Below, piece after piece: positions 9,841 through 64,000 of a stretch of DNA of 64,000 nt (positions are counted from its first letter, which is position 1; each line of letters starts with the position of its first letter). The notes below the pieces were generated by a model. It saw only the letters and a program-made list of their open reading frames with translations. It searched no databases and was not told where the DNA came from. Source of the stretch: a virus. Its lineage: Duplodnaviria > Caudoviricetes. The translations under genes and the position numbers were made by a program. Location of the stretch: IMG/VR virus record IMGVR_UViG_3300010163_000018, positions 1-64,000 of that record, one strand, 5' to 3'.

Positions 9841-10035
9841 ATGGCACGTGATCCAAGAATGCCGGCAACATTTGATCTGCCTGATGGTGATTTTGTTGCA
9901 TTAATAACATGGGCATATGTTGTTGACAAGTTCGAAAAAATCCTTAACGGAGTTATTACCAACATGGATTTGATTAATAAAGATCTTGGTCGCATTGATA
10001 AGAAGATCGATCAATGGACTAATAAGGAGGAATAA
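9841..10035 (+). CDS. Hypothetical protein, 64 aa
   Basis: AGAAAGGG RBS. First gene of the tail-block operon, tightly coupled to the next ORF. Confidence 0.7.
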   Translation: MARDPRMPATFDLPDGDFVALITWAYVVDKFEKILNGVITNMDLINKDLGRIDKKIDQWTNKEE

Positions 10036-10038
10036 ATT

Positions 10039-10449: not shown

Positions 10450-10479
10450 TTTTATTTTTTGTAGAAAGCGGGTGATATA

Positions 10480-35941: not shown

Positions 35942-37655
35942 CAAACAGAATTATGACAAACTCGTGAAGTCACTAAAAGAACTGGATCTGTCATTTAAAG
36001 GAATTGCTACAAACCAAGCAAATATAAAAGAGAAATCTTTTAAAGATATAAGTGCGTGGGATGATTATATGAACACAGTTCTCGACGCATTTAATACGTT
36101 CTCTGATAGACTGTCTGTCATAAAGAAAATGTTTGATGATATGGATACTGACATTGACGGTATGAAAGCACCATTGGGTTCTTTGGTGGATGATATCAAA
36201 AACCTTCTTATCAAAACCCCTAAGGATATCAAGCTTATAACAGAACTTGATAAAACAATACATGAGGTATACGATGTCCTGACAGATCAATCTGCTGACA
36301 AATCGAAATATAAAGATTTCCTGTATGTAATACCCGACACAAAGAATCTTGTCAACATCAATAATTTTGACAATCATCATATAATTGCCGCCATCAATAA
36401 ATTTAATGATTTTTATAAAAATGAAATCATTAAAAACGCAGGAAAAGATCCCAATGTTATTGCCAAGAATTCAAATGCTTTTAAAGAAGCAATTAATGAA
36501 TTAAATAAACAATTCAATGTGGATATAAAAATAAATACGAATGTTAAAAATCTTGGAATGCAGACAACGCCAGGTAAAATGAGAGGTGGATCCTCTCGCC
36601 AATTAACTGTCTCTAAAACAAAAGGATTTGATCTTGGTGGTGTAGAGATATTCATTCGTAGTGAATTATATACGGATTGTATCCAAATGATTCGTCGTTC
36701 AGGAAAAATGATATTTGGGCAAGTAATGTGTAGCAGCATCTGTCATGAGATATTCCATAACATATCATTTATGATGTTGCATGGTAATTCTGGTCCTGGT
36801 AAACTGTTATCGGCTATTACCAGTTTAACATCGGCTATTTTTGATACAGCTATGACTATCGAAAGAGCGGTATCACAATTCTTGGCAAAACTCGGTATCA
36901 AGTCAGAAACCGTCAAATATGAAAATATGATATCTATTATGATTAAAAATGTAACATATTCATCATATGATAAATCATTATTCAAGACCATTTGTGACAA
37001 AATATTTGATAAAAAGATAGACGAGGTATCATTGAGAGAAGTTGATGGCATTCGTGAAATTCCTATTGAAGAATTAAAAAAGATGCCAGTCAATGTCAAG
37101 AAAATCGTTACTAAAGTTCTGACAATTGGAGTATTATTATTACTTGCATTAGGACGATCTGTGCCAACAGTGATACAAATCCCTGCTGCTATTATTTTGG
37201 GACTTAACATTAGCTCACTGCTTGGTGGAATCCCACATTTTAGTCACGATAATGAGGAATCAATGGCGGATGCATTTGCAGCAATGTATAAATTACCAGT
37301 TGTATTCGGGGATACTGCGTTGGAGTCTAAAGATGGAAAGAATCGGTTTAAGTATAATAACACGGACAACAAAAACGATGAACACCCCGCAACATATGAC
37401 AGATCAGTTGTTGGTTATAATATGGCGAAAGAAATACTTAATTCTGGAGAAAAAATAAATCCTGAATTGAAAGAATATCTCGAATTCATCGTAAAGGAAT
37501 TTAACGGAGTTAATAAGGTTGAACGTCGGTTCACCAAGGATCAAATCAATAAATCTGCTCCGGAGTTCAATTCTAATATAAATTCTGCATTGAATGATTT
37601 CATTGCCAAACATAATATATCCGTGACTGAATCATCGTTAATATATGATACGTAA
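35934..37655 (+). CDS. Zinc-metalloprotease-like (HExxH) virion protein, C-terminal part
   Basis: CHEIFHN (36744-36758), a hydrophobic pair of helices, NEESMADAFA and DEHPATYDR, in the motif order of M48/HtpX-like zincins. There is no RBS before ATG 35934. Confidence 0.6.
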   Translation: MFNKQNYDKLVKSLKELDLSFKGIATNQANIKEKSFKDISAWDDYMNTVLDAFNTFSDRLSVIKKMFDDMDTDIDGMKAPLGSLVDDIKNLLIKTPKDIKLITELDKTIHEVYDVLTDQSADKSKYKDFLYVIPDTKNLVNINNFDNHHIIAAINKFNDFYKNEIIKNAGKDPNVIAKNSNAFKEAINELNKQFNVDIKINTNVKNLGMQTTPGKMRGGSSRQLTVSKTKGFDLGGVEIFIRSELYTDCIQMIRRSGKMIFGQVMCSSICHEIFHNISFMMLHGNSGPGKLLSAITSLTSAIFDTAMTIERAVSQFLAKLGIKSETVKYENMISIMIKNVTYSSYDKSLFKTICDKIFDKKIDEVSLREVDGIREIPIEELKKMPVNVKKIVTKVLTIGVLLLLALGRSVPTVIQIPAAIILGLNISSLLGGIPHFSHDNEESMADAFAAMYKLPVVFGDTALESKDGKNRFKYNNTDNKNDEHPATYDRSVVGYNMAKEILNSGEKINPELKEYLEFIVKEFNGVNKVERRFTKDQINKSAPEFNSNINSALNDFIAKHNISVTESSLIYDT

Positions 37656-44675: not shown

Positions 44676-47600
44676 TTATCCTCTTGATAATCTTGTTACT
44701 TGTTCTGGAATGTCATTGCTTTGGAAAAGATTTGTATCCGTAGCATCCGTTGTAGGTTGCGGTTTGGGTTTATCACCGTCAATCTTCTCAATGAGTTCCT
44801 CGAGCAATTGTTCTACACGTCGAGCACGAACATTGAATGTCATCTTGCTCATTTTGTCTAACAATTCTGAATTGTTTGTTTGATCTGGTTTTATATCGTA
44901 TTTATTTACGATGATAGGACTTACTCCATTATTTTCATTAGATTCATCCATAAGCTTGGACATATCAAGAGGCGGAACATCCATCTGTACATTATTAGAT
45001 CCATATACAGAATCCGTCCAGAAGTCTGATACATCGCCACTACCCTTCGGCGCAGTAGCACCGGAGAACGCGAATTTTGAATTACTGGAATCATCTTCAG
45101 CAGGGGCTTTTGAACCAACATATCTAAGTGTAGTTCTAAGACCAGGATATGACGGACCCATAGTCCATTGTAATTTAGACCGCCAGTTTGGATCTCCGTC
45201 AAGATAACTCTTTGCTTGTCCAGGTCCAACTATTGCTGTTCTCGAACCATTGCCTGCATCAAAGCCTAAAGCATTTTGATCATCAGAACCGGGTTGAATA
45301 TACATTCCGACATGCTCTTGTGTTGTTATGATATCTCCTTCTTGCATGTCATTCGGATCAAAATCCATAAATATCCAATCGTCTGAAGGTTTTCCATCAG
45401 GACCAAGAATGAAACCGTCACTACCTCGTTTTCCAACGATGTCATACGTACACCATCTATATTTATCACAAGATCCTGCCTGACTCTTGGTTGGGTCAAA
45501 TGTATAACCCATATAGTTCATAGTTGCACTAAGCATACCAGAACAGTCTGGGTGAAGGTGCTCAAGAGTAATACCGCTACGTGTTGTAACAGGTCCTCTG
45601 TTGCCATGATCATATGTTCCTGAAGGCACTTTATTAGTGTATGCCTCCCATACCTGTGATGCAGCTTCAATCAGATCACCTTTATTACCTCCGGTTGCAT
45701 TGGACACGGTTGATACAAATCTGCCATTAATAACTCCTTCCTTATCTGAGGCCTTGTTTGACGAACCCGATGGACTAATATGTTTATTACCGAAAGAATT
45801 ATAATATTCTTCGGCAGAATTATGTCTCGCAACAACACCATTGGGATTTGATTGTAACATCCATGGATATGCTTTGAGGACCTGTTCATCACTGGTATAA
45901 CCTGTTCCTGCTTCATATTTCCAAAGAAAGATCTTGTTTGCCTCAACAGGATTTGAAGCATTTTTAATAGGCTCAAATATTCCACGTTCTTTAAGAACAG
46001 ACAATATTGCGTCAAGTTGTGCTGGCTTGTCTGTTATCGATTTTCCCTTCTTAACGGTTTTATTATATAAATCCCTTTTAAGACCAGACGATGTGAATTG
46101 TGCTATACCGAAACCTACTGCCTCACCAGGCGTCTGTCCACCATATGCTGTTGCATGTCTTCCATATACAAAGTCATCTTCTGATTCCTTCTTACTGTCA
46201 ACATCAGCGGCATACGAAGCATCACCTTCTGCTCCTGCTTTATAACCGAACTTGTCTTGATAAATATTTTCGAGATTATCATATTGGAAATTAGATTCGT
46301 GTTTGAAGCAGCCCATCATACCAGCGGCACCAATAGGAGACATTCCAGCACTTACCAAATAACTGTATGTCTGCTCTTCTGGTGTATCACCTGACAATTC
46401 ACCGCCACTTTCTTCGAACTTCCAATATGTCAATGGGTTAATATGACCATCATCTCCTGTTTGACGACTGTTAGATTTAGTAACCATGTAACGTAATAAC
46501 TTAAAGTCCTCACTACGTCCAGTCATACCGGTACTACCGAACTTACCCAGTATCTGGTTAGGTTCAATGTTTGAACCCTCTTGAACAGCTTTGTCAACTT
46601 CATCAAGATGGAAGTACCAGTGATACATACCTGCAGAATCTCTCCATTTAACGGAATTTCCAAGACCACCGTTTGGATCGGAGTTACCATGTTTACCACC
46701 ACGAGTTACATATGTTACAGTACCACCAGTGATAGCACGGACAGTATCGTCATTGCCTCCATTGTTAATAACAATAGCTTCTGAGTCATTACCTGTTGAT
46801 CCAACACCTTCTTTTGATACAGGTGCATCAGATTTTCCATACCAACCACTATCAAGCGTTGATATACTCGTCAATCTTTTACTATCATCATCAAATGCAT
46901 CACCTGATGTTGCAGCGAAATAGTCATGTACGGGTGATTTAGAAGAAGTTTTGTCAGAAATGTCTGTTATTGTATTTATTATAGGACTAAATGGAGCCAT
47001 TTCTGCACCAAGAGCAGATTCACCAGAGCTACCTGCTGAGTCAATTTCGCTGAGATCAATTTTCTCCATAGCTGATGATGCTTCTTCATAACCAGCAGCA
47101 GCCTCTTCGGCGCCTTTCAACATGTTCTTTCCGCGTTCACTACCCTTGTCGTATGCAGCTTGACCGCCGAGTTTTACAATGTATGAATTACCTTTTTTCT
47201 CCCATAGTTTTTCCATACGTGTTTCATATGCGGCATCGTCTTCTCCATCACGTTTTGGATTATCTGCTTTGAGTTGATCTTTGGCTTGTTTTTCTATAGC
47301 TTCGTATTCATCACCGAGTTCACGTTTTATAGTTTTAGCTTTATTTTCTTCATCGGCTGCTTCTATTGTCTTCTTCATACTATCGGCCTTTGAATCACCG
47401 GTAAATATAGAAGTAAGTTTTCCAGTAAGAGTTTTGAGTTTGTTGAGAGCTTCTGTTGTTGCTTCATCAAAACCATACTGTTCATATTCATTCTCCTCAT
47501 CACCAGATCCATACAGACCCAATTTAGAGTTCAATGTTAATGATGTAGCCGACTGTCGTTCAACCTTGCCTGTCATAGGATTAGCAACATAAGCACCACC

Positions 47601-50600
47601 ATTTCGGTCGGTTCCAACGACATTGACATAGTGACTGTTACCACTCTTGGTACCGAAACCAGTACCACTGCCGAGAAGCGTAATTGGATTAGTTGGTGAC
47701 GCTTGTTTCAGTGAAGCCTGTGTAACTCCACCAACACGCATACCCATACCCATTGCACTACCAGTGCTAACCATTGATCCAACAGAAGTGCCTCTGCTTG
47801 GTTCATAAGCACCACTACCGGCCATTCTTGCTGCAAGTGAAGCAGGATTAACCTTTTCACCTGTTCGACGCGAGTATGCGTCAGCTAATACAACAGGACC
47901 ACATCCGCGTTCACCCATATTCATATAATTACCATATGAATGCTGGTTCATTGTTGTATTATTACCAGATCCATACATATATGACCATGAGTTGTTTACC
48001 GTGCTTGTATTTACATCACCGGCACCGAAGTCACTACCGAGATTAACCTTTTCTGTATCAACTTTAGGATCTTCCTTTTCTTCCTCCTTTTTGGAACCGT
48101 CTTCACCACCAGGTAGTATTGCTTGGAGTTGAGAGATCATTCCCTCAATACCTTGTTTCATCTGGTCTACACCTGATGTTATCATTGTCTTTGAGGTGTT
48201 GAGCATGTTCTTACCTGTATCGGCAAGACTATCTCCTACTTTACCTACACTACCACCTAAAACTGGGAATTTACCAATCAATTTAGCGACTGCACCTATG
48301 CCGAATAACAAACCACCCAACATACCGATTATAATACCCATTCCTATCTGAAGAATACCTGATATCATCTGAAGTTGATAACCGATGTTTTCAATGATAG
48401 GCTGAATTATTTGCATTATTATCATGATAGGAACCATGATAACATCTACTAATGCAGTTATGATTTCTAATATCGGAGTAAGGACATCAAGTAGTGTCTG
48501 AATGATTGGTTGTATTGCTTCAATAATAGGCTGAATTACCGCTATCAACGATTCTGCTATTGTAACAACTGTTTCGGCTATTGTGGTAACCATGTCTTTG
48601 AGTATTGATACTATGGGCTTAATTAACTCCATAACAGCTTCAAATGCTTGATTCAACGGTTCAAGTCCCTCAGTCAGTATACTCATTACGAGGTCTTTAA
48701 GAGCCTGAAGTCCTTCCAAGCTTGCTACAATCGATACAATCAATTCACCTATACCGAGTAATGCCTGCGAGAATCCTCCGAATATCTCACCGAGATTACC
48801 GAGCATATCACCGATAAGACCACCCTTTTTATTAGAACCACCACTGCTACCAGCTGATCCTGCATCGGGTGTAGATGAGGTTGGTGTCGATGATTCGCCG
48901 GAATCTGTTGATCCTTCTTCTCCACTACCACCAGTACCGGCTGATCCTGCATCGGGTGTAGATGAAGTAGTCGTTTCATCTGAAGGAGGTGTAGTTGATG
49001 GATCCGTTCCTGTATCAGTAGAATCTTCTCCATTTTCAGCAACCTGTTCATCATGTATCAGCCCAAGTTTCTCAGCAATTCCCTTCAGTGATTCATGCAT
49101 CTTGGATATGATTGATTCTTTCTTTCCAGTGATAGTATCCTCGATGTTTGCCTGTATAGGATTTGCCTCACGAGCTTCCTTTTCGGATTGCTTCTTTTTC
49201 TCCTCAGCAGCTTTTTCTTTAGCCTTTTTGAATCCCTTTGTCATTCCGGATGTAAATCTACCACCAAGAACTTTCAGTCTACCTTCACCATCACTGGATC
49301 TTTTATTCTTTATCTTAGAAACAGCGTTCTTAGCGAACTGTCCAACCTTGCTGTCTGCAATACTCTTCATTGCTTCTTGTATTTTGTTTTTTACACTCGA
49401 CATTACATTCTCGGCAAAATCTTTTAATGAACTACCAACCTTGCCTAAGAACCCTACAACCAAACCCACAGCTTGACCGATCTTCGAGTTCTTTATTACC
49501 GACGTAACTTTCCCAAATTTATCCTTGAAATCTGATATTATGTTCTTAAATGATTTTGTAACATCGGTTGATATATTCTCGAAAGACTGTTTCAGTACCT
49601 TTTTAGGATCTTTAAGAAGATCAGCAACAGTCGCAGTGTTGGTCATCTTCTTTCGTTCTTTTTCTCTACCTTTTTTGTCGGTGTATGTTTCTCTCGCAAT
49701 AGAACCATCGTCATTCCGTACCCATTGACCTGTGAACGTTGTATTGAGTATCTTATCTTTAGCTATGCCTGCCACTTCTCGGGTTGTAAGGACATTTCCT
49801 TTTTTATCTGTAATATGTTTGGAAAACTCCATGTCACCGATTTTATTTACAGCTTTCTTTCCGAGGTTTATTGCTCCCGCATATACTTTTTTCGGGGCTT
49901 CAATAGCAAGGTTCCTTATAAGTCCCTTGTTCTCCGATATAACGTTACCATTTTCATCTTTTTCTTTTGAACCGAATAAACCGTCCTTCATTGAAAGGAG
50001 ACCATATTTCAGATCCCTCATGCCTTTCTCAGCTATCTTCATTACGAATTTAGCAATTTTACCAAGTACCTTAGTAATACCAGAAAGACCTTTTTTAATT
50101 ACCTCGAACGGAGATGAAGCTTCGTCACCAGAATCCTTTTGAGGTTTTTCTGGAGCATCTTGTAAAACAGAACCGATTTCAGGAGTTTCACCATTAGCAA
50201 GTGCTGTTTCTCCCTTCTTACGTTTCTCCTTTATCTCGTCTATTTTTCTTATATCTTTGATATGTTGAAGTATTGCAGTTTTGACTTTACTGTCATCTAT
50301 TGATTCTGCCATCAGTTCAGCATCATCAAGAGCACCATCTCCAATATATTGAAGAGCTAACCGTGCCTGTGATAATGCCATATCATCAGACAATTCCTCA
50401 GGATCAAATTCGAAGTTCTTTACACGATTCTCTGCACCTTTTAATGCCATACTGTCGACATTGTATATAGCATTATTTGCAAGTCGTCCACCAGTCTGTT
50501 TAATTTTCTGGGCATGCTCATTGCTGTCAATTTTACTCTTGACTTTACCGGCAACTTCTTTAACTTTACCCTTCGCTCTATCAACAAGACCGTCTTCACC

Positions 50601-52793
50601 GAAAACCTTTTCCTGTGCTTCTTTCACTCGGCTATCATATGCATACCTGCCAGTGACATATCCTGTGGCATCCTTGATTTTCCCCATTGCCTGAGAAGCA
50701 GCTTGCCCAACTTTACCTTCCTTTCTGAATAGGCCCTTAATATCATCCTTCAGTGTACCGCTCAATGCGCGATCAATTAAGGATCCCATTCCTCTACCAC
50801 CGGCAATACCTAAGAAGTTTCCGAGGAAGGAACCCAATCCGCTTCCTCCTCCGCCAGAGCCTCCTCCACCAGCATTATTACCAGTAAGAGAATTCATAGT
50901 ACCAGACATTACACTGTTTACAGTCTTCTTGATGAGATCATCATCGTCATTTACACCACCACCGTTGATCAATGCAGCCATTGCTTTACCAAAGGCTTGA
51001 TCAGTTGTTGGTAATGGTTTGTCTGGGTTATGCTCAAGATCAAGTTCAGGGAATGGATCCTTTCCTGTCGTACGAACATTGATTCCTCGGTTCAGGAGTC
51101 TAAATATATTACCAAGGTATTCATTGTTGGTATATTTTTCATTTGATCCGGATGCGGTTTTAATTCTACCATCGGTAATTTTACCACTATCATCCGAGCT
51201 ACCGCTTTCACCAGGTTTGATGTATTGATCTTTATGTTCATTCCAGAATTGTGACATTACCATTTTCTGGGTGATCTTAGATGCTTGTGTTGCATTTCTC
51301 TTACCAGATTGAGAAAAATCAATGGCATCAGACATCATATTTTGTAATGACTGATTTATGTTCTGGATGAATGTTTGGGAATTCATTATTCCAGATGACA
51401 ATTGTAAAATGATCGTGTTACAAACAGAAGCCCAGTATTCAGGATCGTTCTTCAAACCACATAATGTTCTAACAGCGGGAATGACATATTGACTCATGTC
51501 TCCCTTAAGATCTGTTAATCTGAACTGTCTGCTTCCCCTTTGGTGTAAGTCCTGGACAATAACTGCGTTCAACGCTTTAGCGGCAGTATCAACATCAGCC
51601 TCCGAGAATTTATCACCAAGAGTCTGTTTCCCTACAGTATTAATACGGTCCTGAACTGTCTGTGATAATCCAGTTGATGCAAATGCCTGTTTTGTTACTG
51701 AAGCAAATTCATTCTTTGCAGGGCCTTTAACCCAACCACCGTTGTTACTGATATGCCAAGAAACACCCGAGATAGATTCATTAATGTTAGCGAGCATTTC
51801 AGGAATAAGATTGACGATTGTATGGCGGGTCATTCCATCGAACTGTGCCTTCTTGGTATCATATGAATTCTTTATAATGGTTCCGTAATCTTTGTCGCCT
51901 TCGAATGATGTTATATCACCAAATAATTTTTGGAACGGTTTAGAACCAATTATCTCATTCATTGCAGCCTGTGTTGCAGTACCAATAGCTTCATTGAAAC
52001 GCTTACCTATTTCATCAATAGATTTACCACCAAGAGCATTGAACTGTTTATGGGTCACCATTTCAAGACCCATCTTGGCAATTTGTTCAGGGGATGTACC
52101 CTCGGCGAGTAATTGAGTAGCCAAGGATAGTGAGCTAACAACACTGTTACCACCCAGACCTCGTTTGGATGCTTCGAATATTCTACCTAACGAAAGCTTT
52201 CCATCAGAATATAATCCACCCTTGTCGATCTCTTTTTCTTCTTTTTTATCTTCAAATCCGGTTGTTTGAATTTTGATAATTTTGTCAAGACGATCACTGA
52301 TACCCAGAAGTGTTTTGTTGATATTGTTGATGGATGCGAGCATTTCAGATGATCTGTTGTTTACTACAGAAATTATTTCCGCTGTATTAGCAACACTTTG
52401 CTCTGTTTGACGACGTCCAATCTTAAGGGCTGTTGCGGATTGTTTGTTAGCTATGTCAGACATTGAATCCGCATCAAGAGCCTTTGGTCTATCCTCACCA
52501 TCCAGCTTTGCGCCTTCGGAATCATCTATCTTAAAACCAGCATCAAAGTCATCGCCCATAGATGAATCAAATGAATTCTCTTCACCATAAAACCAGTCGG
52601 AAATTTTCTTGGTAACATTTGAGGTCTTTAGCCTTGCAAATGTATCAGCTGCATCTGTTGTTGATTTAGTAAGATTACTTTTTATATCCTTGGCATCATT
52701 TATCAATGATTGGATATTCGATGTGTATTCTTTACCAGTCTCCTTAAGTGTGTTACTGATAATCTCAAAGCTTCGGTTAATAAATTTACTCAT
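44676..52793 (-). CDS. Tape-measure/tail-tip protein (2705 aa) with C-terminal C39-like, M23-like, phage-tail-lysozyme and NlpC/P60 domains
   Basis: Long helical region with amphipathic repeats (about 48250-48800). Hydrolase motifs: RGCGPVVLA...HYVNV (C39-like), GGLGNSV...YFHL...GSTG (M23-like), AAGMMGCFKHESNF...GIAQFT (lysozyme), PDCSG...EHVGMY (NlpC/P60). GGAGGAGG RBS. Confidence 0.8.
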   Translation of the reverse strand: MSKFINRSFEIISNTLKETGKEYTSNIQSLINDAKDIKSNLTKSTTDAADTFARLKTSNVTKKISDWFYGEENSFDSSMGDDFDAGFKIDDSEGAKLDGEDRPKALDADSMSDIANKQSATALKIGRRQTEQSVANTAEIISVVNNRSSEMLASINNINKTLLGISDRLDKIIKIQTTGFEDKKEEKEIDKGGLYSDGKLSLGRIFEASKRGLGGNSVVSSLSLATQLLAEGTSPEQIAKMGLEMVTHKQFNALGGKSIDEIGKRFNEAIGTATQAAMNEIIGSKPFQKLFGDITSFEGDKDYGTIIKNSYDTKKAQFDGMTRHTIVNLIPEMLANINESISGVSWHISNNGGWVKGPAKNEFASVTKQAFASTGLSQTVQDRINTVGKQTLGDKFSEADVDTAAKALNAVIVQDLHQRGSRQFRLTDLKGDMSQYVIPAVRTLCGLKNDPEYWASVCNTIILQLSSGIMNSQTFIQNINQSLQNMMSDAIDFSQSGKRNATQASKITQKMVMSQFWNEHKDQYIKPGESGSSDDSGKITDGRIKTASGSNEKYTNNEYLGNIFRLLNRGINVRTTGKDPFPELDLEHNPDKPLPTTDQAFGKAMAALINGGGVNDDDDLIKKTVNSVMSGTMNSLTGNNAGGGGSGGGGSGLGSFLGNFLGIAGGRGMGSLIDRALSGTLKDDIKGLFRKEGKVGQAASQAMGKIKDATGYVTGRYAYDSRVKEAQEKVFGEDGLVDRAKGKVKEVAGKVKSKIDSNEHAQKIKQTGGRLANNAIYNVDSMALKGAENRVKNFEFDPEELSDDMALSQARLALQYIGDGALDDAELMAESIDDSKVKTAILQHIKDIRKIDEIKEKRKKGETALANGETPEIGSVLQDAPEKPQKDSGDEASSPFEVIKKGLSGITKVLGKIAKFVMKIAEKGMRDLKYGLLSMKDGLFGSKEKDENGNVISENKGLIRNLAIEAPKKVYAGAINLGKKAVNKIGDMEFSKHITDKKGNVLTTREVAGIAKDKILNTTFTGQWVRNDDGSIARETYTDKKGREKERKKMTNTATVADLLKDPKKVLKQSFENISTDVTKSFKNIISDFKDKFGKVTSVIKNSKIGQAVGLVVGFLGKVGSSLKDFAENVMSSVKNKIQEAMKSIADSKVGQFAKNAVSKIKNKRSSDGEGRLKVLGGRFTSGMTKGFKKAKEKAAEEKKKQSEKEAREANPIQANIEDTITGKKESIISKMHESLKGIAEKLGLIHDEQVAENGEDSTDTGTDPSTTPPSDETTTSSTPDAGSAGTGGSGEEGSTDSGESSTPTSSTPDAGSAGSSGGSNKKGGLIGDMLGNLGEIFGGFSQALLGIGELIVSIVASLEGLQALKDLVMSILTEGLEPLNQAFEAVMELIKPIVSILKDMVTTIAETVVTIAESLIAVIQPIIEAIQPIIQTLLDVLTPILEIITALVDVIMVPIMIIMQIIQPIIENIGYQLQMISGILQIGMGIIIGMLGGLLFGIGAVAKLIGKFPVLGGSVGKVGDSLADTGKNMLNTSKTMITSGVDQMKQGIEGMISQLQAILPGGEDGSKKEEEKEDPKVDTEKVNLGSDFGAGDVNTSTVNNSWSYMYGSGNNTTMNQHSYGNYMNMGERGCGPVVLADAYSRRTGEKVNPASLAARMAGSGAYEPSRGTSVGSMVSTGSAMGMGMRVGGVTQASLKQASPTNPITLLGSGTGFGTKSGNSHYVNVVGTDRNGGAYVANPMTGKVERQSATSLTLNSKLGLYGSGDEENEYEQYGFDEATTEALNKLKTLTGKLTSIFTGDSKADSMKKTIEAADEENKAKTIKRELGDEYEAIEKQAKDQLKADNPKRDGEDDAAYETRMEKLWEKKGNSYIVKLGGQAAYDKGSERGKNMLKGAEEAAAGYEEASSAMEKIDLSEIDSAGSSGESALGAEMAPFSPIINTITDISDKTSSKSPVHDYFAATSGDAFDDDSKRLTSISTLDSGWYGKSDAPVSKEGVGSTGNDSEAIVINNGGNDDTVRAITGGTVTYVTRGGKHGNSDPNGGLGNSVKWRDSAGMYHWYFHLDEVDKAVQEGSNIEPNQILGKFGSTGMTGRSEDFKLLRYMVTKSNSRQTGDDGHINPLTYWKFEESGGELSGDTPEEQTYSYLVSAGMSPIGAAGMMGCFKHESNFQYDNLENIYQDKFGYKAGAEGDASYAADVDSKKESEDDFVYGRHATAYGGQTPGEAVGFGIAQFTSSGLKRDLYNKTVKKGKSITDKPAQLDAILSVLKERGIFEPIKNASNPVEANKIFLWKYEAGTGYTSDEQVLKAYPWMLQSNPNGVVARHNSAEEYYNSFGNKHISPSGSSNKASDKEGVINGRFVSTVSNATGGNKGDLIEAASQVWEAYTNKVPSGTYDHGNRGPVTTRSGITLEHLHPDCSGMLSATMNYMGYTFDPTKSQAGSCDKYRWCTYDIVGKRGSDGFILGPDGKPSDDWIFMDFDPNDMQEGDIITTQEHVGMYIQPGSDDQNALGFDAGNGSRTAIVGPGQAKSYLDGDPNWRSKLQWTMGPSYPGLRTTLRYVGSKAPAEDDSSNSKFAFSGATAPKGSGDVSDFWTDSVYGSNNVQMDVPPLDMSKLMDESNENNGVSPIIVNKYDIKPDQTNNSELLDKMSKMTFNVRARRVEQLLEELIEKIDGDKPKPQPTTDATDTNLFQSNDIPEQVTRLSRG
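48853..48965 (-). repeat. Exact 26-bp direct repeat (48853-48878 and 48940-48965) encoding SSTPDAGS in a low-complexity linker
   Basis: GCTGATCCTGCATCGGGTGTAGATGA occurs twice. Confidence 0.9.
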
Positions 52794-56186: not shown

Positions 56187-58193
56187 TTAGCCTCCGATTT
56201 CAGTTGAACCTGCATCAGCGTCAACAGTCTTAACAACACCAGCCTTGATATCAGGAACGATTTCAGTGTTCTTGAAGATTACGCGACCCTGGATACCCTG
56301 AACTGCGATTGTCTTGTACTGGGATGATGTTGTAACGAGAGCAGCCTGACCACCTGGATTGTTGATATCCTGGTAACCAGCATTCTCAGGTGAGTTTGTA
56401 AGGTGACGTGCGAAGCGGAGGTGCTTGTTTGTGATGTGGTGAGGATCCATCGGATATGCAACGATATTGAGGAAGTACTCTCTTGACATATCGCCCTCAG
56501 CAGAACCTTCCTGGTATGCAGGAATAAGCGTGTATGCATCAACACGGTTAGAAGCAACGACACGAATAGGAAGATCGGAATCTGTAACAAGGCCGTAGCT
56601 GTGATTCATCTTAACGCCGCCGATTTCTGTAGATTTCTTAACAGTCCATGATACAAAAGGATTGAGGAGTCTGCAAGCCTTAGGGTTGCCGTATACAACG
56701 AAGCCGAGGTTTTCAAGCTTGCCGCGGTCACTGAGCTCGTAGATTACAGAATTGATAGCATTGTAGATAGCATTTGATCTGTATTCGAAAGGATCACCAG
56801 CAAAGCCGGGAGAGATAGATGTAGGACTGAGGTCTACGTACTCTGTATGAGTATAGCTCTCGAGAGACCATATATCCGAATCATAGCCGTCGTACATATC
56901 AAACTGCTCATCAAGGAATTCAAGAATTGATTCATCCTCGAACAGCTCCTGATTGATGATAAGCTGCTGAACAAGTCTGTTGTAGAGATTGAAGTTAAGT
57001 GAAGTATTAGCTTCAGTAAAGTCTTCCACAGTGAAAGGAACCTGGAATCTGCAGCCATCGTCGATGAGGAACTTACGGATTTCAGGATACTCACGGAAGC
57101 CGATTGTTCTGAGGTTTGTTTCGTTTGAGATAGTGCCGTTTACATAGAGGCCTGTGATCTGACCGCATGCAGAAGCTGTAAGAGTACCCTTAACGAAATC
57201 AACGTAACCAGAAAGATGATCAGAGAAAGAAACTGTTTCACCAGTATTCTTGTTTGTTTCCGGATCAACAACGGGAAGCTTCATGTTCTCAGTAATACCG
57301 CCGTTAAGAAATACGCCGCCTGTCTGAATATCAATAGCAATACCAGCACCGGGGAGCTTTACCTTCTTACCGTCATACTGAATGTACTGAATGTTGAAGT
57401 TATAGGAAAGACGAGTACGCAGTGTCTTCTCGAAAGCGCCTGCAGAGCCCTGAGCTGGATACGGTGTACCATCGTCCTGGAGCAGGTGGTTGAACATATC
57501 ATATTTCTTATTAGGTGCATTTTTGATATCATCGAGCAGGATAGGATCCTTGTCATTGATTCTTACACCCTTACCAGCGTTATAGAGCTTCTTCCATGTA
57601 GGTGTGCCGTCAGGCTCCTTCTGCCAGTATACATGCGGTACTTCATACTCTTCGCCGGTCTGGTTGTTTACGAGATACTTGATAAGAATACGCTGTTCGA
57701 TGTTAACAGAGGATGTTGTCTGAACAGGCATAATCTCCTTGCCGAGGAAGCGGATATACTGCTTAATCAGTGCCGGGAAGTCGAGAGTTGCAAGAGGAAG
57801 ATATGTAGATGTATTGTAAGATTCCTGGATCAGGAAGCTCTTAACAGATTCATCCCACGCCTTGTCAAGCTGATGAGCAACGCTCTCAAGATGATACTTC
57901 TCACCGGGATCTGTTGCAGCATCAGCTGCCTCCATGAACTCTTGGAGAATAGGCTGAAGCATCTCCTCTTTGTATGAATTCATAATGTCGGGATTATCCA
58001 TCATCTTCTTGACATCTTTTCTGATATCAACGCCGTTATATGCATCCTTGATATTCATTGCAGCTTCCTGGAAGTTCTGATCGAAAGTATCGTTTAATGC
58101 GTCGAGTTCCGCTTCAGATAATGAATTCACCATATTCATCTGCTCCTGGAACCATGTTCCACGAGTACCTACTAATGATCTGTTGTAAGCCAT
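56187..58193 (-). CDS. Major capsid protein (jumbo-phage type) with ~124-aa propeptide
   Basis: 668 aa with the strongest codon bias in the window. Acidic helical N-terminus ending LIQE124|S, then YLPLATLDFPALIKQY...IMPVQT, typical of T4/phiKZ-like capsid N-arms. Downstream of the protease and scaffold-like genes. AAAGGAG RBS. Confidence 0.8.
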   Translation of the reverse strand: MAYNRSLVGTRGTWFQEQMNMVNSLSEAELDALNDTFDQNFQEAAMNIKDAYNGVDIRKDVKKMMDNPDIMNSYKEEMLQPILQEFMEAADAATDPGEKYHLESVAHQLDKAWDESVKSFLIQESYNTSTYLPLATLDFPALIKQYIRFLGKEIMPVQTTSSVNIEQRILIKYLVNNQTGEEYEVPHVYWQKEPDGTPTWKKLYNAGKGVRINDKDPILLDDIKNAPNKKYDMFNHLLQDDGTPYPAQGSAGAFEKTLRTRLSYNFNIQYIQYDGKKVKLPGAGIAIDIQTGGVFLNGGITENMKLPVVDPETNKNTGETVSFSDHLSGYVDFVKGTLTASACGQITGLYVNGTISNETNLRTIGFREYPEIRKFLIDDGCRFQVPFTVEDFTEANTSLNFNLYNRLVQQLIINQELFEDESILEFLDEQFDMYDGYDSDIWSLESYTHTEYVDLSPTSISPGFAGDPFEYRSNAIYNAINSVIYELSDRGKLENLGFVVYGNPKACRLLNPFVSWTVKKSTEIGGVKMNHSYGLVTDSDLPIRVVASNRVDAYTLIPAYQEGSAEGDMSREYFLNIVAYPMDPHHITNKHLRFARHLTNSPENAGYQDINNPGGQAALVTTSSQYKTIAVQGIQGRVIFKNTEIVPDIKAGVVKTVDADAGSTEIGG

Positions 58194-58247: not shown

Positions 58248-58865
58248 TTATTGACTATTTTTAATCTTCTTCAGATTGGTATCGATTTTCTTCAGTAGAA
58301 GAGTATACAAGCTATCTAACTTTTGATAGAAAAGAAGATTCTCACCATAACCAGAATCTACGAAATCATTGATAACGTATTTTTGTCCTTTGGATAAGGC
58401 GGACTTGAGTTGACCTATTGATTCATCATTACTCTTGACAACATCAGATGGAAGCAAGGGTACAATATCTTTGATGTCATTGAGAATTTCATCTATCTCA
58501 CTATTACGAGCAACCATCTTTTTATACAATTGCTCATTCAAGATATTATTAGCTTTATCAGAAAGCTTTGTATCCTTTTTATCAGCTTCTTCTTCACCAT
58601 CATCTGAGCTACCTGAAGAATCACCTCCGTCATCCATACCACCATCGCCATCGTCACCAGACATCGATGAAAAGTCCATACCACCATCGTCTTCATTTAA
58701 TGCGGGTGGATCACCAATATCTCCACCATCATCACCAGTATCAGTAGCAGGAGGGGCAATGTCTTCAGAGGGCATATCACCACCTGTGTCAGCCCCGCCT
58801 CCATCGAACGGTTGTAACTCGTCTCCGTCGGCTTCCATGACTGCAAAAAATAAACCTTTTGACAT
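58248..58865 (-). CDS. Acidic scaffold/head assembly protein
   Basis: AVME11|A, then a D/G-rich disordered tract and a helical C-terminus. Immediately upstream of the capsid gene. Confidence 0.55.
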   Translation of the reverse strand: MSKGLFFAVMEADGDELQPFDGGGADTGGDMPSEDIAPPATDTGDDGGDIGDPPALNEDDGGMDFSSMSGDDGDGGMDDGGDSSGSSDDGEEEADKKDTKLSDKANNILNEQLYKKMVARNSEIDEILNDIKDIVPLLPSDVVKSNDESIGQLKSALSKGQKYVINDFVDSGYGENLLFYQKLDSLYTLLLKKIDTNLKKIKNSQ

Positions 58866-58886: not shown

Positions 58887-61800
58887 TTACCATGATTCAC
58901 GAGGATGTTTGATCTTAGAACCTGTGATACGCATGTAATTTTCTTCCATTTTACCTTTAAGACGCATATATTCAAATTTCGTCTTAACATCTTCAAGTTT
59001 ACTGGAATGATCCAGTTCACGTATCTTCTCATTAATGATTTTGAGCTCTGTTTCAAGCTCATGTTGCGCTTCCTTTTTGAGTCGCTGCTTGTCTGCAAGT
59101 TTGAGACCTTGGATACCAGCATATGCAGCAGCCAGATAAGGTTGTAATGTAAACAGGATACCAGTGGCTCCTAATTTCAGACCAACCCTTGCAGCTTTAT
59201 ATACTGACGAACGATAGCTCGGATTATCAAGAATCTCAGCTTTAACCTGATCTTCATCCCTTTTGATAAGGGAATCGACCGTTTTAGTCAGCCATTGTTT
59301 GGTTCTGGTAATGGGCTTAAGTACAGCTCTACCGGTATTAGCAACTTTCTGCACACCTTTCTTACCCTTCTGCTGAAGAGCCAGGGTTTTACGGTCTGCA
59401 TCCATTGCTTTTGTAAGTGTGTCCTCCTTAGGAGGTTTTCCAGCACCTTCTCCTTTTGACAGGGGCTCTTTGGATTCCAAGAACATAAACATCTCCTGAA
59501 TGGTTTGTCCAGAGGATAGTTTCTGTTTACCGTCCTTTTGGGCGATGGACTCCTTAGTGTCAGCAGGTTCGTTGCTATTATTATTATTGTTAGAACCCTT
59601 GCCGATTCCCTTCTTACTTCCACCTTCATTATGTGAGGAATCGTAAGTGTTGTGATGGGAACTGTTATTGTTGGAGTCTCTTGTGGTCTTTCCGGTGGAA
59701 TGATCATCGATGGTTGTTGTCTTAGTATTGTTGGAGTCCTTATTAAAGGAATTGGTATAGTTGTTCGTTATGTTGACGACAATCTTTCCATCAGCATCTT
59801 TCTTGTTCGGATTGTTTTCAAATCCGGAACCGAGCATATCCCCAAGGGTGTCTCCATCAGTATCCATTTTAGCATCAACCGAATCAGCAATGTCATCAAT
59901 GGGATTTGTAGGAACCCCTTCAGGCAGCGATGTTGGAGTAACTGTTGTCCTGAGATCATCGGACATCTTAAATCGAGTCTTCATGTACTCAGGTATTTCG
60001 CCCTTCTCCTGTTCCATTATTACTTGGAAATCGTCAAGATCGATAATACCATACTCCTTGACATATTTCTGAATGAACTTCTGTCTCATTTTGCAGCCAC
60101 GTCTTGCCTCGACCAATATTTCGCTCATGTCATCGAGCGCTTTTTCTGCGGCGTTTAACAGTGTTACTGGATTTTGTTTAAGCAGTTCTTGTTTTGACTT
60201 GAGAAGCTTGCGATAATCACGAATCGATCTTCTAAGGTCGTCAAACATTTTATCAATGTTTGTGTCTGTTCCGGCACAATATTCCATAGGAGTCGTTCCT
60301 ATTGATTTACAAGATTGATCAATCTCTTTCTTCAATTGATCATTGCTTTCTTTAATGGACTTTATTTTCTCGGAAAGACGTTCTGTTTGTTTTGTAAGAG
60401 CGTCCAAATCAGCAGGTGATAGACTCTTCATCTTTTTCTTTGCGATTTTTAATTCTTTACGGGCTTTTTCGTAGTCTTCTAATGCAAAATTTGAATCCAA
60501 TAACGTCTTTTCATTATCTTTGTATAAATGATTAAGAGCATTGATCGCCGTTCTCTTGGATGTATGTTCTGCAGCATATTTATCAGCAACATATTCAGTT
60601 CGCTGACGATCATGTTCATTTAATTGATTATGCTGTTTGCTGTCTTTAATGAACTTCTTCGCAAGAGCTTCTTGACCCTTTGCCTTATCCTCATCATATG
60701 AAGGATGTGTTGGACAACCGGCCATAACATTGATATGGTCATATGCAATATGCCCTTCTTCGTGTTTTAAAGCAAAAGCAGATTTCCACTCTTTCTGCTT
60801 TAAAGCTTTACGAGTAATATGAATCTCATATTTGCTGGGGTCAATCTTGAAATTTCCGGTTTCTTTGTCAATAACATAATCACCATTGGGATCCCTGACA
60901 ATCTGGTTTGTAACACAGGGTCCGTATATTTTAGCTATATCGTCATCGATCGAAAGTTTAACACGCATCTTCTCCTTACCACCAGGAAGATCAATGTCAG
61001 TTTTGATTGTATCAGTTTTGGGATCATAATCAAACTTCTTGAGCGTTCTCTTGAAATGAGTTTGTTTACTCTCCTGGAATACAAATGACTCTTGTGTTGT
61101 TTCGCCTTCATTAGAATCTTTCGGTTCTTCGTCAGGTGTAGCACTCTCAAGAGACTTGATGAAACCGAGCGAAGGTTCTATCCCAAGAATTTCCTTTGCA
61201 ATAGATGCGACCTTACGGGTATCATTAGATTCCTTGATATTCTTACCGATCAAGGGATTCATCTTGATTCCCTTAACAAGTTTGAGCATATCGTCAATCT
61301 TCTCTTGAAGATCTTTAAGAATTTCTACATCACTCGAATTGTACTTACCACAAGAACCACCTTTAGCAATATTAATATACTTTGCAGCCTGTTTAAGATT
61401 TCCCATTGTTTCGGACTTGAATATGTTTATACAAGCATTGTTCGTCCACTGTTTCTTCTTACTGAGGTCTTCGATTGTTTTCATGTCCCTCATAAGAAGT
61501 GAAATAGCAGTATTGAGTCTTTCGTTGTTGGTTTTGGTAGTTGCCTCTTGGAATACATAATCCGGGGAACCATCATAATATGCTTCTCTTACAAAAGATT
61601 CATCCTGGAGGAATTCAAGGTCGTCCTTCAGATCAACGATTCTTTTCGCAATAACAGCGATCTCTTTGACACGGGATTGAATCTTTGTATTATTGAACAG
61701 ATTCATGTGTTTAGACCAGTTAACTGGGTTAACCCAAAACAGTTTAACACATGCCCACAAGTCACCAGTAAGATCATTCAAATGGGTCAACGTTTTAAGT

Positions 61801-63596
61801 TGCTCATTGGTAAAGTTACCACTCTTACCTTTGATGGCCTTCTTTGTCCATTTATAAACCTGCTTTATATCAGTATGACCTTCAGTAGATCCAGTTACAT
61901 TTGGGAGCAAGGATAACACCATACCAGCAGTTGTTTTGTAACGATGAACAAATGAATTGTTATTCCAACGATGCTTCTTATCCATGTCAACGATCTTTTC
62001 CATCTCATCCATCAAAGCACTTACAGCCGTCTGAAGATTCTCACGCCTCTTTTCAACACTGGCTTCCTGGATAAGGTCCTCGAGCTGTTCATTGAGATCG
62101 TTAAATGATTCTCCGATATATGCATCGATAAGGAACGGTGACAGATTTGCATTGTACATCTTGTCAGAAATCGTTTCGATCTCTTTCTCAACAAGATAAC
62201 CATACTGTTCACAATACATCATATCAGATATTGACATATCGCCGAAGGAACGTAATTCATCAATAACAGATTCTGATACTGTTTTCGAAGTTTGTTTTGT
62301 GGTATCATTTGTATCGTTACCGGAACCATCATCATTTTTGTATGCTGCCTTGGTCCGAGAGTTCTTATTGATTCTGCCTCTTACATCTTTAACGAATCGA
62401 TCCTCATCATTAGTCGTACCTCCACGTACATTGTGGGCGATATCGAGATATATGCGTGAATCAAATATATTGAAAATTGTAAGAAGTGTATTGTTTGAAA
62501 TAGATGCATCGGGGTCATTGATGAGGTTAAGTTTGAAGAAGTCTTCAATGAACTTGATCGTTCCTTCCTTGTCTGATTTGAATGTAGAGAACAGATCATA
62601 TTTCTCAAATCTCTTAGCACCTTTATTCTGTTTGAGAATTGATTCATATGACTTATGGTAGTCTTCACACAAAACCGTATCAAACGGAAATTTCTTAGTA
62701 TTATTGAAGACTTTCACGAGGATATATGGAACTATGTTTTCGTCCAATTTAATACGTGTCCAGAAATAAAAGTCTTTACTAAAGAATTTAAGGAGATCTT
62801 CTGTTGTATCACATTTACGCAATTCCATAACCAAATCATCGGTAAATTTTTCAAACTCTTTAGATATTACCCACTTCTTTGACTTTTCGTTGTACTTAAT
62901 GTGTTCAGGTTTTGTCTTCTCGAAGTAATTCACTTCAGCAGCCTCTTGAACCGAGTCATCAACAAATATCTCAATGTCAACAAGATCCTGACGGTTGTAT
63001 ACTCTTTCAATCTCTTTTTCTTCATCCATGTCTTCAGGAAGAGAAATGAGATCATTTTTCATAATACCATCAACATAGATTTTCTCATCAAAGATTCTCT
63101 CTTCGATATCCAGTTCAGGGATCTCATCAAATTTCAAGGGTTCCGAAAAAGTATTGAGAACGTCTGCAATCTCGGACGGTTTGACGAATGCATTGAACGT
63201 GTATATACCGTTGATGAATTTAGTGAAGTCCTCGAAATTGTCAGCAATATGCTGAAGCATCTTGAAACCGACATATGAATCAATTGCTCCCGTGAGGGTA
63301 TCATTATTTGAATTTACAATAGTCTCGTATACTCCATCAGCGGGATTAATATCCTGAATGGTGTCGTTAATCATCTGGATTACTGCATTCACTTTAGACT
63401 CGTCTTCAAGCCATGTAGGATCAACTGTTTCGAGTCGTGTCATTACTCTTTCAACAATCGGCTCAAGCTGATAGTCCTCGTCAAGAACAGGAAAGTTCCT
63501 GACTTTGAATCCCGATTGAATGAATTCATTTAAGCTGTTTATAGCAGTCTGAATACCGGTGAAGTATTCATTTTTGATTATAATATTCTTGCTCAT
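58887..63596 (-). CDS. Large internal head protein/candidate polyprotein (1569 aa) with a duplicated domain and an HEEGH zincin module
   Basis: Motifs VQE218, IQE511, FQE684, TQE836/FQE842, IME1195/EQE1197 and IQE1368/LE1374. HEEGH at 60750-60764 followed by EYVADKYA. GGAGG RBS. Confidence 0.65.
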   Translation of the reverse strand: MSKNIIIKNEYFTGIQTAINSLNEFIQSGFKVRNFPVLDEDYQLEPIVERVMTRLETVDPTWLEDESKVNAVIQMINDTIQDINPADGVYETIVNSNNDTLTGAIDSYVGFKMLQHIADNFEDFTKFINGIYTFNAFVKPSEIADVLNTFSEPLKFDEIPELDIEERIFDEKIYVDGIMKNDLISLPEDMDEEKEIERVYNRQDLVDIEIFVDDSVQEAAEVNYFEKTKPEHIKYNEKSKKWVISKEFEKFTDDLVMELRKCDTTEDLLKFFSKDFYFWTRIKLDENIVPYILVKVFNNTKKFPFDTVLCEDYHKSYESILKQNKGAKRFEKYDLFSTFKSDKEGTIKFIEDFFKLNLINDPDASISNNTLLTIFNIFDSRIYLDIAHNVRGGTTNDEDRFVKDVRGRINKNSRTKAAYKNDDGSGNDTNDTTKQTSKTVSESVIDELRSFGDMSISDMMYCEQYGYLVEKEIETISDKMYNANLSPFLIDAYIGESFNDLNEQLEDLIQEASVEKRRENLQTAVSALMDEMEKIVDMDKKHRWNNNSFVHRYKTTAGMVLSLLPNVTGSTEGHTDIKQVYKWTKKAIKGKSGNFTNEQLKTLTHLNDLTGDLWACVKLFWVNPVNWSKHMNLFNNTKIQSRVKEIAVIAKRIVDLKDDLEFLQDESFVREAYYDGSPDYVFQEATTKTNNERLNTAISLLMRDMKTIEDLSKKKQWTNNACINIFKSETMGNLKQAAKYINIAKGGSCGKYNSSDVEILKDLQEKIDDMLKLVKGIKMNPLIGKNIKESNDTRKVASIAKEILGIEPSLGFIKSLESATPDEEPKDSNEGETTQESFVFQESKQTHFKRTLKKFDYDPKTDTIKTDIDLPGGKEKMRVKLSIDDDIAKIYGPCVTNQIVRDPNGDYVIDKETGNFKIDPSKYEIHITRKALKQKEWKSAFALKHEEGHIAYDHINVMAGCPTHPSYDEDKAKGQEALAKKFIKDSKQHNQLNEHDRQRTEYVADKYAAEHTSKRTAINALNHLYKDNEKTLLDSNFALEDYEKARKELKIAKKKMKSLSPADLDALTKQTERLSEKIKSIKESNDQLKKEIDQSCKSIGTTPMEYCAGTDTNIDKMFDDLRRSIRDYRKLLKSKQELLKQNPVTLLNAAEKALDDMSEILVEARRGCKMRQKFIQKYVKEYGIIDLDDFQVIMEQEKGEIPEYMKTRFKMSDDLRTTVTPTSLPEGVPTNPIDDIADSVDAKMDTDGDTLGDMLGSGFENNPNKKDADGKIVVNITNNYTNSFNKDSNNTKTTTIDDHSTGKTTRDSNNNSSHHNTYDSSHNEGGSKKGIGKGSNNNNNSNEPADTKESIAQKDGKQKLSSGQTIQEMFMFLESKEPLSKGEGAGKPPKEDTLTKAMDADRKTLALQQKGKKGVQKVANTGRAVLKPITRTKQWLTKTVDSLIKRDEDQVKAEILDNPSYRSSVYKAARVGLKLGATGILFTLQPYLAAAYAGIQGLKLADKQRLKKEAQHELETELKIINEKIRELDHSSKLEDVKTKFEYMRLKGKMEENYMRITGSKIKHPRESW

Positions 63597-63597
63597 A

Positions 63598-64000
63598 TTA
63601 GAAACCTCCCTCCATAATTATGGAAAGAGCTTCCTTACGAATATCCCCTCTTAACGGAACATGAATCTTGGACTTGCATTGTTCAAATACAATACTTCCG
63701 TTGTCAATACCCATAATCTCATCAGTCGAGAACTGGAAAGCTTCACACACAACCTGCATTGTCTCATCCTTCTCGCAACAATACTTTGCCAGTTCCTTAA
63801 GGAATACAACAGAACCTTCCATATGTACTGCGGGTTTGATATCTGCTTCTGCACCATCATGCGATGGAAAGTCCACCATGTCAAACGTAATAACCTTTGA
63901 CACACTCATATTAGGCTGAGTGGGTGATGCATTAGGAATCATGTTGCCAAGCAAACGAACCGAGAAACAAGGTACGGCACCGATATCCATTATTTCAGAA
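63598..64000 (-). CDS. Prohead (capsid maturation) serine protease, T4 gp21/phiKZ gp175-like; 5'-truncated by the window edge
   Basis: The frame is open to the window end (SEIMDIG...). AVPCFSVRLLG and ITFDMVDFPSHDGA parallel T4 gp21 IPGVSSRGLG and D.V.GPSAP.A. The C-terminus ends IME|GGF. Confidence 0.75.
   Translation of the reverse strand, partial: SEIMDIGAVPCFSVRLLGNMIPNASPTQPNMSVSKVITFDMVDFPSHDGAEADIKPAVHMEGSVVFLKELAKYCCEKDETMQVVCEAFQFSTDEIMGIDNGSIVFEQCKSKIHVPLRGDIRKEALSIIMEGGF

Follow-up and report, generated by a model that had tools for sequence, protein, structure and literature searches.

In giant phages the head contains tens of megadaltons of protein that is ejected into the host, and little is understood about how this cargo is selected, loaded and diversified. 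The locus described here raises the question whether a single head gene can supply several such proteins at once. It is found in a virus record of the Caudoviricetes (Duplodnaviria), IMG/VR record IMGVR_UViG_3300010163_000018 of 73,667 bp and 38% G+C, whose bases 1-64000 constitute the stretch of DNA that was analyzed, hereafter the window. On the minus strand, at 58887-63596 including the stop codon, lies an open reading frame (ORF) of 1569 amino acids (aa; 179.6 kDa), which the initial annotation, made from the sequence alone, had described as a candidate virion polyprotein divided into about seven modules by protease motifs. The length and coordinates of the ORF are correct, and its placement between a prohead protease gene and the scaffold/capsid genes is seen both here and in related loci.

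Among the explanations considered, we favor, with some reservation, the one in which the ORF encodes a modular internal-head precursor that contains a cassette slot and is cut at the module junctions by the S80-type protease encoded next to it. On this view the gene is a conserved member of the head cluster in a clade of uncultured jumbo phages equipped with a phiKZ-type (S80) prohead protease. Its precursor product would be built into the prohead, where the neighboring serine protease would cut it at sites of the form hydrophobic(P3)-x-Glu↓Ala/Ser/Gly (the arrow marks the putative cleavage point), the best candidates being E218, E496/E511, E671/E684, E836/E842, E1195 and E1374. Most of these sites are paired, so that cleavage would excise spacers of 6-15 residues and leave some seven polypeptides with masses of 18-41 kDa. 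Of these, at least the zincin, whose catalytic residues are intact, would be expected to stay in the head and to enter the host with the DNA; the acidic N-terminal piece may be cleared in the manner of a propeptide.

Modular architecture and the cassette slot

The strongest evidence for a modular protein comes from the comparison of homologous architectures. A search of 5.8 billion proteins yielded 260 homologues, and the lengths and site counts cited for homologues below cover the 120 of them that were listed. These are conserved down to 35% identity and fall into length classes of 1548-1577, ~1257, ~1055 and ~888 aa, along with a few proteins of other lengths. In pairwise mappings, no homologue lacks residues 1 to ~511 or ~1186-1569, and between these stretches whole modules are missing or replaced, with boundaries at ~511, ~840 and ~1186-1195. 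By these sequence comparisons, a constant N core (residues 1-496) and a constant C core (1196-1569) flank a slot that holds from zero to four exchangeable cassettes. The junction of the two cores in the minimal forms reads YIGE↓SY(D)I...IQE↓QE.GDIPDYM. Where inserts are present, each one seen in the inspected homologues closes with a further xxE↓SY, after which the C core starts as before; since the inserts end in this way, the cassettes sit exactly at the YIGE↓S junction, with a site at both ends. The motif sites therefore coincide with the points of module gain and loss, which bears out the modular architecture proposed in the initial annotation.

At least three kinds of cassette occupy the slot, namely a helical bundle, a zincin and a weakly recognizable SUKH-like module; in the phage studied here the slot contains two paralogous helical bundles followed by a gluzincin with a helical tail. 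The SUKH-like cassette, at about residues 527-654 (666-793 in P0087), gave weak but repeated matches to SUKH-1 (SMI1/KNR4) in the homologues P0087, P0090, P0095 and P0102, the best of them at 6.5e-5 and below the Pfam cut-off. SUKH-1 is known as a family of immunity proteins of polymorphic toxin systems.

Along the chain, module 1 (residues 1-218; 62943-63596, this and all following coordinates within the ORF being on the minus strand) represents part A of the N core, is very acidic (predicted 25.2 kDa, isoelectric point (pI) 4.07) and ends at the invariant site (V/I)QE218↓AAE. Module 2 (residues 219-496; 62109-62942; predicted 32.6 kDa, pI 5.3), part B of the N core, is mostly helical and ends in YIGE496↓S, and an acidic spacer of 15 residues (497-511; 62064-62108) lies between E496 and LIQE511↓A. 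The slot starts with module 3 (residues 512-684; 61545-62063; predicted 20.1 kDa, pI 8.6), a helical cassette with the end sites FVRE671↓A and VFQE684↓A, followed by module 4 (residues 685-842; 61071-61544; predicted 17.6 kDa, pI 6.7), which comprises a four-helix bundle (685 to ~818) and a disordered tail carrying the paired sites TTQE836↓S and VFQE842↓S. The homology of these two modules, noticed at the outset, is supported by BLASTP (E=7e-17), and the alignment begins with the residue that follows one site and extends as far as the VFQE of the next. Module 5 (residues 843-1195; 60012-61070; predicted 40.9 kDa, pI 8.8) consists of the gluzincin domain (~843-1035) and long helices, and ends in DLDDFQVIME1195↓Q. 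Module 6 (residues 1196-1374; 59475-60011; predicted 19.5 kDa, pI 4.9) begins with the start of the C core (GEIPEYMK...), continues as an N/S/T-rich low-complexity region and ends in F-x-F-L-E1374↓S, which is Glu-Ser in every homologue listed; its earlier description as largely low-complexity holds for the N/T/D/S-rich second half and fails for the first ~75 residues, which are conserved and not of low complexity. Module 7 (residues 1375-1569; 58890-59474; predicted 22.0 kDa, pI 9.8) is a conserved basic C-terminal domain, in which a moderately hydrophobic stretch (1471-1498) is too weak for a clear membrane helix.

Structure prediction is consistent with this division. The AlphaFold2 model of residues 1-842, built from 39 sequences, has a mean predicted local distance difference test (pLDDT) score of 77.9, and pLDDT falls below 50 only at residues 215-219, 418-432, 497-512, 556-569, 673-685 and 817-842, about 11% of the chain. 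All five sites named in the initial annotation for this part of the protein fall within such low-scoring loops or linkers, as it had predicted, and two further sites, E496 and E671, lie at the edges of low-confidence stretches. Residues 684-818 match four-helix bundles as one unit with Z values of ~10-11, the fold being generic. Foldseek searches of PDB and BFVD with this model and with that of residues 843-1197 returned nothing at E <= 0.001, the matches of residues 1-842 being generic helical bundles only, and ESM Atlas provided no usable lead for residues 1-511 or 1198-1569. Searches against Pfam and PHROGs, with the whole protein and with single segments, yielded coiled-coil noise and left modules 1-4, 6 and 7 without a match; the ORF did not match the phiKZ inner-body family PF12699 at E values up to 0.1, and tblastn of the whole protein found no match in 50,697 records of cultured phages. 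Taken with the comparative data, these predictions support the view of the protein as a string of independently folding modules.

The junction motif and the head protease

The nine glutamates that the initial annotation had proposed as cleavage points were confirmed in position and context: SVQE218↓A, LIQE511↓A, VFQE684↓A, TTQE836↓S, VFQE842↓S, VIME1195↓Q, EQE1197↓K, TIQE1368↓M and FLE1374↓S. In 10,000 shuffles of the protein, the six observed copies of QE[AS] were never reached (0.48 expected), and the same was true of the five copies of hydrophobic-hydrophobic-QE[ASGM] (0.10 expected). Column profiles were made at five sites of the ORF. There P1 is Glu, invariant or nearly so, and P1' is Ala or Ser; P3 is V, I, F or Y, and an aromatic residue is frequent at P4, where the E218 site has Ser. 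At four of the five, acidic residues occupy P5-P7. P2 varies freely between Q, M, G, N, T and E, so that the motif initially given as xQE was too narrow, Gln at P2 not being needed.

Two conserved sites had been overlooked, YIGE496↓S, with Glu in 37 of 39 sequences, and FVxE671↓A. The P1 Glu is likewise kept at E218 (39/39 sequences) and at E684 (23/24), and every pattern listed for the 120 homologues has Glu at P1 of both E218 and F-x-F-L-E1374↓S. The sites proposed near the C-terminus are of unequal quality: E1195 and E1374 rank above E1197, which has no hydrophobic residue at P3, and above E1368, which is Asp in 19 of the 120 homologues and is followed by Met or Val at P1'. Most sites occur in pairs 6-15 residues apart (496/511, 671/684, 836/842 and 1368/1374). 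Two of these double sites closely resemble each other, TTQE↓SFVFQE↓SK (829-842; 61071-61112) and TIQE↓MFMFLE↓SK (1361-1374; 59475-59516), and MAFFT placed them in register.

The candidate for the cutting enzyme is the product of the 280-aa gene immediately upstream (record positions 63598-64440, minus strand; its 3' part lies in the window at 63598-64000). It matches two PHROGs of head maturation proteases (4e-10 and 1.5e-5) and scores 22.6 bits against Pfam Peptidase_S80, the family of phiKZ gp175, below the cut-off of 23.4. Its orthologues from related contigs all match Peptidase_S80 (18/18, best 3e-8), six of the 18 also match S77, the family of T4 gp21, and H93, S160 and H194 are invariant among the orthologues; a search of PDB sequences with the protease profile gave nothing meaningful. 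By these family matches the gene encodes an S80 prohead protease of the phiKZ gp175 type. Proteases of the S77/S80 families cut after Glu, with the motifs L/I-x-E in T4, S/A/G-x-E in phiKZ and 201phi2-1 and A-x-E in SPN3US (PMC9026906, PMC5694885).

The motif of the ORF recurs in other head genes of the same phage. The protease itself carries two conserved copies, CF[VI]QE19↓[AS]P and VVCE233↓SFQ; a cut at E233 would take off a C-terminal piece of 47 residues, which recalls the C-terminal autoprocessing known for phiKZ gp175 and SPN3US gp245 (PMC5694885, PMC10052503). In the major capsid protein (668 aa; 56187-58193, minus strand) the site SF[LV][IV]QE↓SYN is conserved ~120-140 residues into the protein in most orthologues. 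Its form here, SFLIQE124↓SYN (codon of E124 at 57822-57824), is likely the maturation site, since a capsid protein of the T4 or phiKZ type is expected to mature there, and would imply a propeptide of ~124 residues; it was used as a positive control for the motif. A second, less conserved site in the capsid protein is NFQE43↓A. Furthermore, four or more additional genes of the record encode N-terminal leaders of ~50-60 aa that end in the motif, examples of these ends being DLDMFSIFQE↓A, DIDSFQIFQE↓A, DIDKFSIIQE↓G and YDCFQE↓G. Judged from this distribution, the motif is probably the phage's own head-processing signal, and the 1569-aa protein is probably cut into several pieces inside the capsid.

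The zincin module and the surrounding genes

The earlier identification of module 5 as a self-contained zincin stands. The zinc-binding and catalytic motif HEEGH (H945, E946, H949) is encoded at 60750-60764 on the minus strand and is followed by the third-ligand motif E1001-x-x-x-D1005; HExxH and E1001xxxD1005 are both invariant in the eight aligned copies. The model of residues 843-1197, built from alignment A4 of eight sequences, has a pLDDT of 62.5, with ~190 moderately confident residues at the beginning (strands, then the motif-bearing helices) and long low-confidence helices thereafter. In a wide structural search with VIA-align, the top 15 rows were all zinc metallopeptidases (Z 5.6-8.5), among them ZMPSTE24 (Z 8.5), neprilysin, PepO and ECE (~7.1-7.5), BepA (7.3) and anthrax lethal factor (6.1), while the minigluzincins abylysin, jannalysin and selecase scored 5.6-6.6 with a root-mean-square deviation of 3.1-3.5 over ~100 residues. 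As these Z values are middling, the support from the fold is moderate, and phmmer of the segment against PDB sequences returned nothing meaningful. On the strength of the zinc-peptidase fold matches together with the invariant HExxH and E-x-x-x-D, module 5 is assigned as a gluzincin with a complete predicted catalytic set.

The zincin module also travels on its own. Among 1.84 billion representative proteins, phmmer found the segment in 26 proteins of 280-1887 aa, and HExxH is kept in 24 of the 24 inspected zincin-bearing proteins. In most of these the zincin starts directly after, or a few residues from, a hydrophobic-x-E↓S/G/A site, and in its closest relatives directly after it, as in IYQE↓SKQTHF, IFME↓SKQTHF and IVITE↓SKKTH. 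The context varies from a position behind a short leader only to one deep in a multi-module chain, and one protein has two copies. Two related loci have a short form of the ORF, L039 with a 910-aa copy of the minimal class and L019 with an apparently minimal one (the match covers only residues 5-503, and the ORF was not resolved); in both, the zincin is found at a distance of ~90-120 kb, as a leader-bearing gene of 401 aa or within chains that are 811-1193 residues long and carry repeated DDDYITE↓A sites. The expectation that segments would occur in relatives as separate or reordered genes is thus borne out for the zincin and not for the helical module of segments 3 and 4, for which the search for a separate short gene gave two matches only, both on contigs of ~3.2 kb and probably truncated copies. 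One of the distant zincin genes, a stand-alone one in locus L043 (5836-7038), adjoins a 1072-aa gene (7941-11156, plus strand) with matches to 'papain fold toxin 1, glutamine deamidase' and GNAT; this region, with its run of leader- or motif-bearing genes, looks like a cluster of polyvalent-type cargo genes.

The order of genes around the ORF is protease, 1569-aa ORF, a 205-aa scaffold-like gene and the capsid protein gene. A homologue of the ORF was located in 33 of 35 related loci, where complete copies measure 882-1552 aa, and the order protease, ORF, ~200-aa gene and capsid is kept in most of them. A leader-bearing gene precedes the protease in most of these loci; a few have an extra leader-bearing gene between protease and ORF, or a downstream gene in a different orientation. 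The 205-aa gene (58248-58865, minus strand; candidate site AVME11↓A) is called scaffold-like since the N-terminal half of its product is acidic and Gly/Asp-rich and the C-terminal half is differently composed, without Gly/Asp runs and helical by eye, as in scaffolding proteins. Among cultured phages, Staphylococcus jumbo phages have the nearest capsid proteins (~22% identity), and the head region of these phages is not syntenic with the one described here.

Several other genes of the record are of note. A 245-aa ORF (record 69452-70189, minus strand) has a match to the PHROG 'RNA polymerase beta subunit' (1.6e-43). Its distance of ~5 kb to the protease recalls phiKZ-type head regions, in which the protease gene has a virion RNA polymerase subunit gene nearby. 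A 2705-aa ORF (44676-52793, minus strand) contains, near its C-terminus, Peptidase_M23 at residues 2015-2092 and a phage tail lysozyme at 2140-2333, holds a few copies of the motif (e.g. KIQE1140↓A) and resembles phiKZ gp181, a giant virion protein that degrades the cell wall. In two places a leader appears to be detached from its body. A 70-aa ORF (record 67440-67652, minus strand) has a full cargo-type leader (DIDSFQIFQE↓A) and a stop 20 residues later, and the next ORF (342 aa; record 66205-67233, minus strand) has no leader and a weak match to the phiKZ internal head proteins (PF12699, 0.0025); the pair looks as if a frameshift or an assembly error had parted the leader from its body. The situation is the same for a 200-aa ORF (35339-35941, plus strand), whose leader ends in DIDKFSIIQE56↓G and which overlaps the start of a 573-aa ORF (35934-37655, plus strand).

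The record carries a 69-bp exact direct terminal repeat. Given a CheckV completeness of 27% and relatives of 260-290 kb, this repeat probably does not mark a real genome end and is more likely to be internal or an artefact of assembly, and, as homologues of the ORF sit on contigs of up to 260-290 kb, the record is most likely a piece of a jumbo phage genome.

Fate of the modules and comparison with known systems

Several observations weigh against a precursor that is cut at its junctions into retained pieces. In SPN3US, the relative studied best, 13 of the 14 mapped sites only remove N-terminal propeptides (PMC10052503). The 1569-aa protein does not have the ~55-aa N-terminal leader of the other putative cargo genes, and its N and C cores showed no recognizable family or fold in the sequence and structure searches. 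The low pLDDT at the junctions may partly stem from gaps in the alignment; the C-terminal sites 1195, 1368 and 1374 are little supported by structure, the models covering residues 1-842 and 843-1197, and confidence being low at the end of the latter, where E1195 is placed. The junction sequences could have been conserved as recombination joints for cassette exchange, and the phage is uncultured and represented by a fragment, about a quarter complete by the CheckV estimate. The one argument for packaging into the virion is the position of the gene in the head cluster.

The most serious rival, to which we would give a minor though real share of the probability, is that the ORF encodes a core or scaffold-like assembly protein that is fragmented for clearance. 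Most of it would then be gone from the prohead by the time the DNA is packaged, like T4 gp22, gp67 and gp68 and the long multiply-cut propeptides of SPN3US and phiKZ, and at most one or two pieces (e.g. the zincin or the basic C-terminal domain) would stay, which would make the protein a processed precursor and not a polyprotein delivering several products. The gene indeed sits between the protease and capsid genes, where T4 has its core proteins, both cores are kept in every relative, as expected of an assembly function, and the closely paired sites resemble the built-in redundancy of propeptide removal (PMC9026906, PMC5694885). Against this, a separate 205-aa scaffold-like gene adjoins the capsid gene, the dispensable and exchangeable middle cassettes fit cargo better than a scaffold, the modules are compact folded units of 18-41 kDa and not short peptides, and the zincin retains all of its catalytic residues in every context. 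The narrower idea that the 1569-aa protein is itself the scaffold was set aside, given the separate scaffold-like gene, and is kept only as part of this rival. Clearance carries most weight for module 1, whose acidity is like that of known propeptides: since SPN3US loses propeptides and T4 core proteins are chopped and expelled, module 1 could equally be, by analogy with these phages, a cleared propeptide.

A polyvalent effector that remains uncleaved or processes itself appears improbable. Such a protein would be injected whole, as is the N4 virion RNA polymerase, or cut by its own zincin after injection, and the junction motifs would be recombination joints or docking motifs and not sites of the prohead protease. 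The zincin is a hub domain of the published polyvalent proteins, some of which travel full-length (PMC5512222), and a repeated junction sequence flanking the inserts is the expected trace of exchange by homologous recombination. Yet most homologues have no zincin and keep the E218, E496 and E1374 sites nevertheless, which makes self-processing by the zincin unlikely to explain the sites. Moreover, Glu at P1 is the hallmark of S77/S80 proteases and the same motif is present at the capsid site and the leader ends, and the conservation of P1, P3 and P1' with a free P2 is the pattern of a protease site and not of a joint at the DNA level. A chance pattern, conceivable in a protein with 127 Glu residues, in which short motifs are easily spotted by eye, can practically be dismissed, as it is contradicted by the shuffle tests, by the conservation over 120 homologues and by the coincidence of the sites with model linkers and module boundaries.

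The internal-head precursor cut at its junctions hence remains the reading we prefer, and it allows a bolder and more tentative extension, which we consider possible but would not bet on: one head gene may serve as a cargo carrier from which the head protease frees exchangeable modules (a zinc protease, helical bundles, SUKH-like modules), that is, as a true multi-product virion polyprotein delivering a host-directed set of proteins in a fixed ratio. If so, any module flanked by hydrophobic-x-Glu↓Ser in the slot would be loaded and then freed by the head protease, and the locus would show how cassettes are exchanged in nature at a protease site; the specificity of the protease would differ from the T4 and phiKZ motifs known so far. 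The head proteome and the ejected proteins of uncultured jumbo phages would become predictable from sequence, and a principle would emerge by which large phage heads could be designed to take up foreign proteins. The predicted packaged zinc protease and the weak SUKH-type, immunity-protein-like cassettes would be candidates for a role in early host takeover or counter-defence.

Two elements of this picture are already known, the processing of head proteins after Glu and the packaging into virions of polyvalent proteins with zincin hubs. Full-text literature searches, outside the scope of which lay the proteolysis studies of phiKZ and 201phi2-1, found no syntenic head gene with exchangeable modules bounded by prohead-protease sites; the claim of novelty made here draws on comparative sequence evidence only.

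The closest known systems are the head proteases T4 gp21, phiKZ gp175, 201phi2-1 gp268 and SPN3US gp245. There, as here, an S77/S80-type serine protease is encoded in the head cluster; it cuts, or here would cut, after Glu, and a three-residue motif is found in the capsid protein, the protease itself and many internal proteins, at multiple and redundant sites (PMC5694885, PMC10052503, PMC9026906). The relatives of the record, from phages of ~260-290 kb, and the phiKZ-type RNA polymerase beta fragment nearby add to the likeness. Unlike the motifs of those phages, the one described here prefers a bulky hydrophobic residue at P3, and often at P4 too, frequently with Gln or Met at P2; and whereas their substrates mostly lose an N-terminal propeptide, the sites here part about seven folded modules and mark a cassette slot. 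The T4 internal proteins, whose leader is removed by the head protease, and the MuF-fused head-packaged toxins are alike in that a part of the cargo's own polypeptide takes it into the head. The 1569-aa protein, which lacks the ~55-aa leader of the phage's other putative cargo genes, differs from them, and its conserved N and C cores would act as the carrier.

In African swine fever virus, the polyproteins pp220 and pp62 are cut by the cysteine protease pS273R at Gly-Gly↓X sites. The concept is alike, one precursor that is taken up into the immature particle and cut at a short consensus by a protease of the virus giving rise to several core proteins in a fixed ratio, but this is an analogy only, as the protease class, the proteins and the host domain are unrelated.

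Finally, the polyvalent proteins of phages and conjugative elements are virion-packaged proteins with zincin hubs, for which self-processing by the zincin has been proposed (Iyer, Burroughs, Anand, de Souza, Aravind 2017, PMC5512222), and with this published concept the polyprotein idea is less isolated than the initial annotation had presented it. The 1569-aa protein shares with them the large multi-module layout beside head genes, the varying module content, the zincin (HExxH and a downstream Glu) and the predicted packaging and delivery with the DNA; the glutamine-deamidase and GNAT neighbor of the stand-alone zincin in a related phage is also typical of the class. It differs in that the prohead-protease motif lies at the junctions and persists in homologues without the zincin, in that constant N and C cores surround a single slot, and in that most of its modules have no recognizable enzymatic domain.

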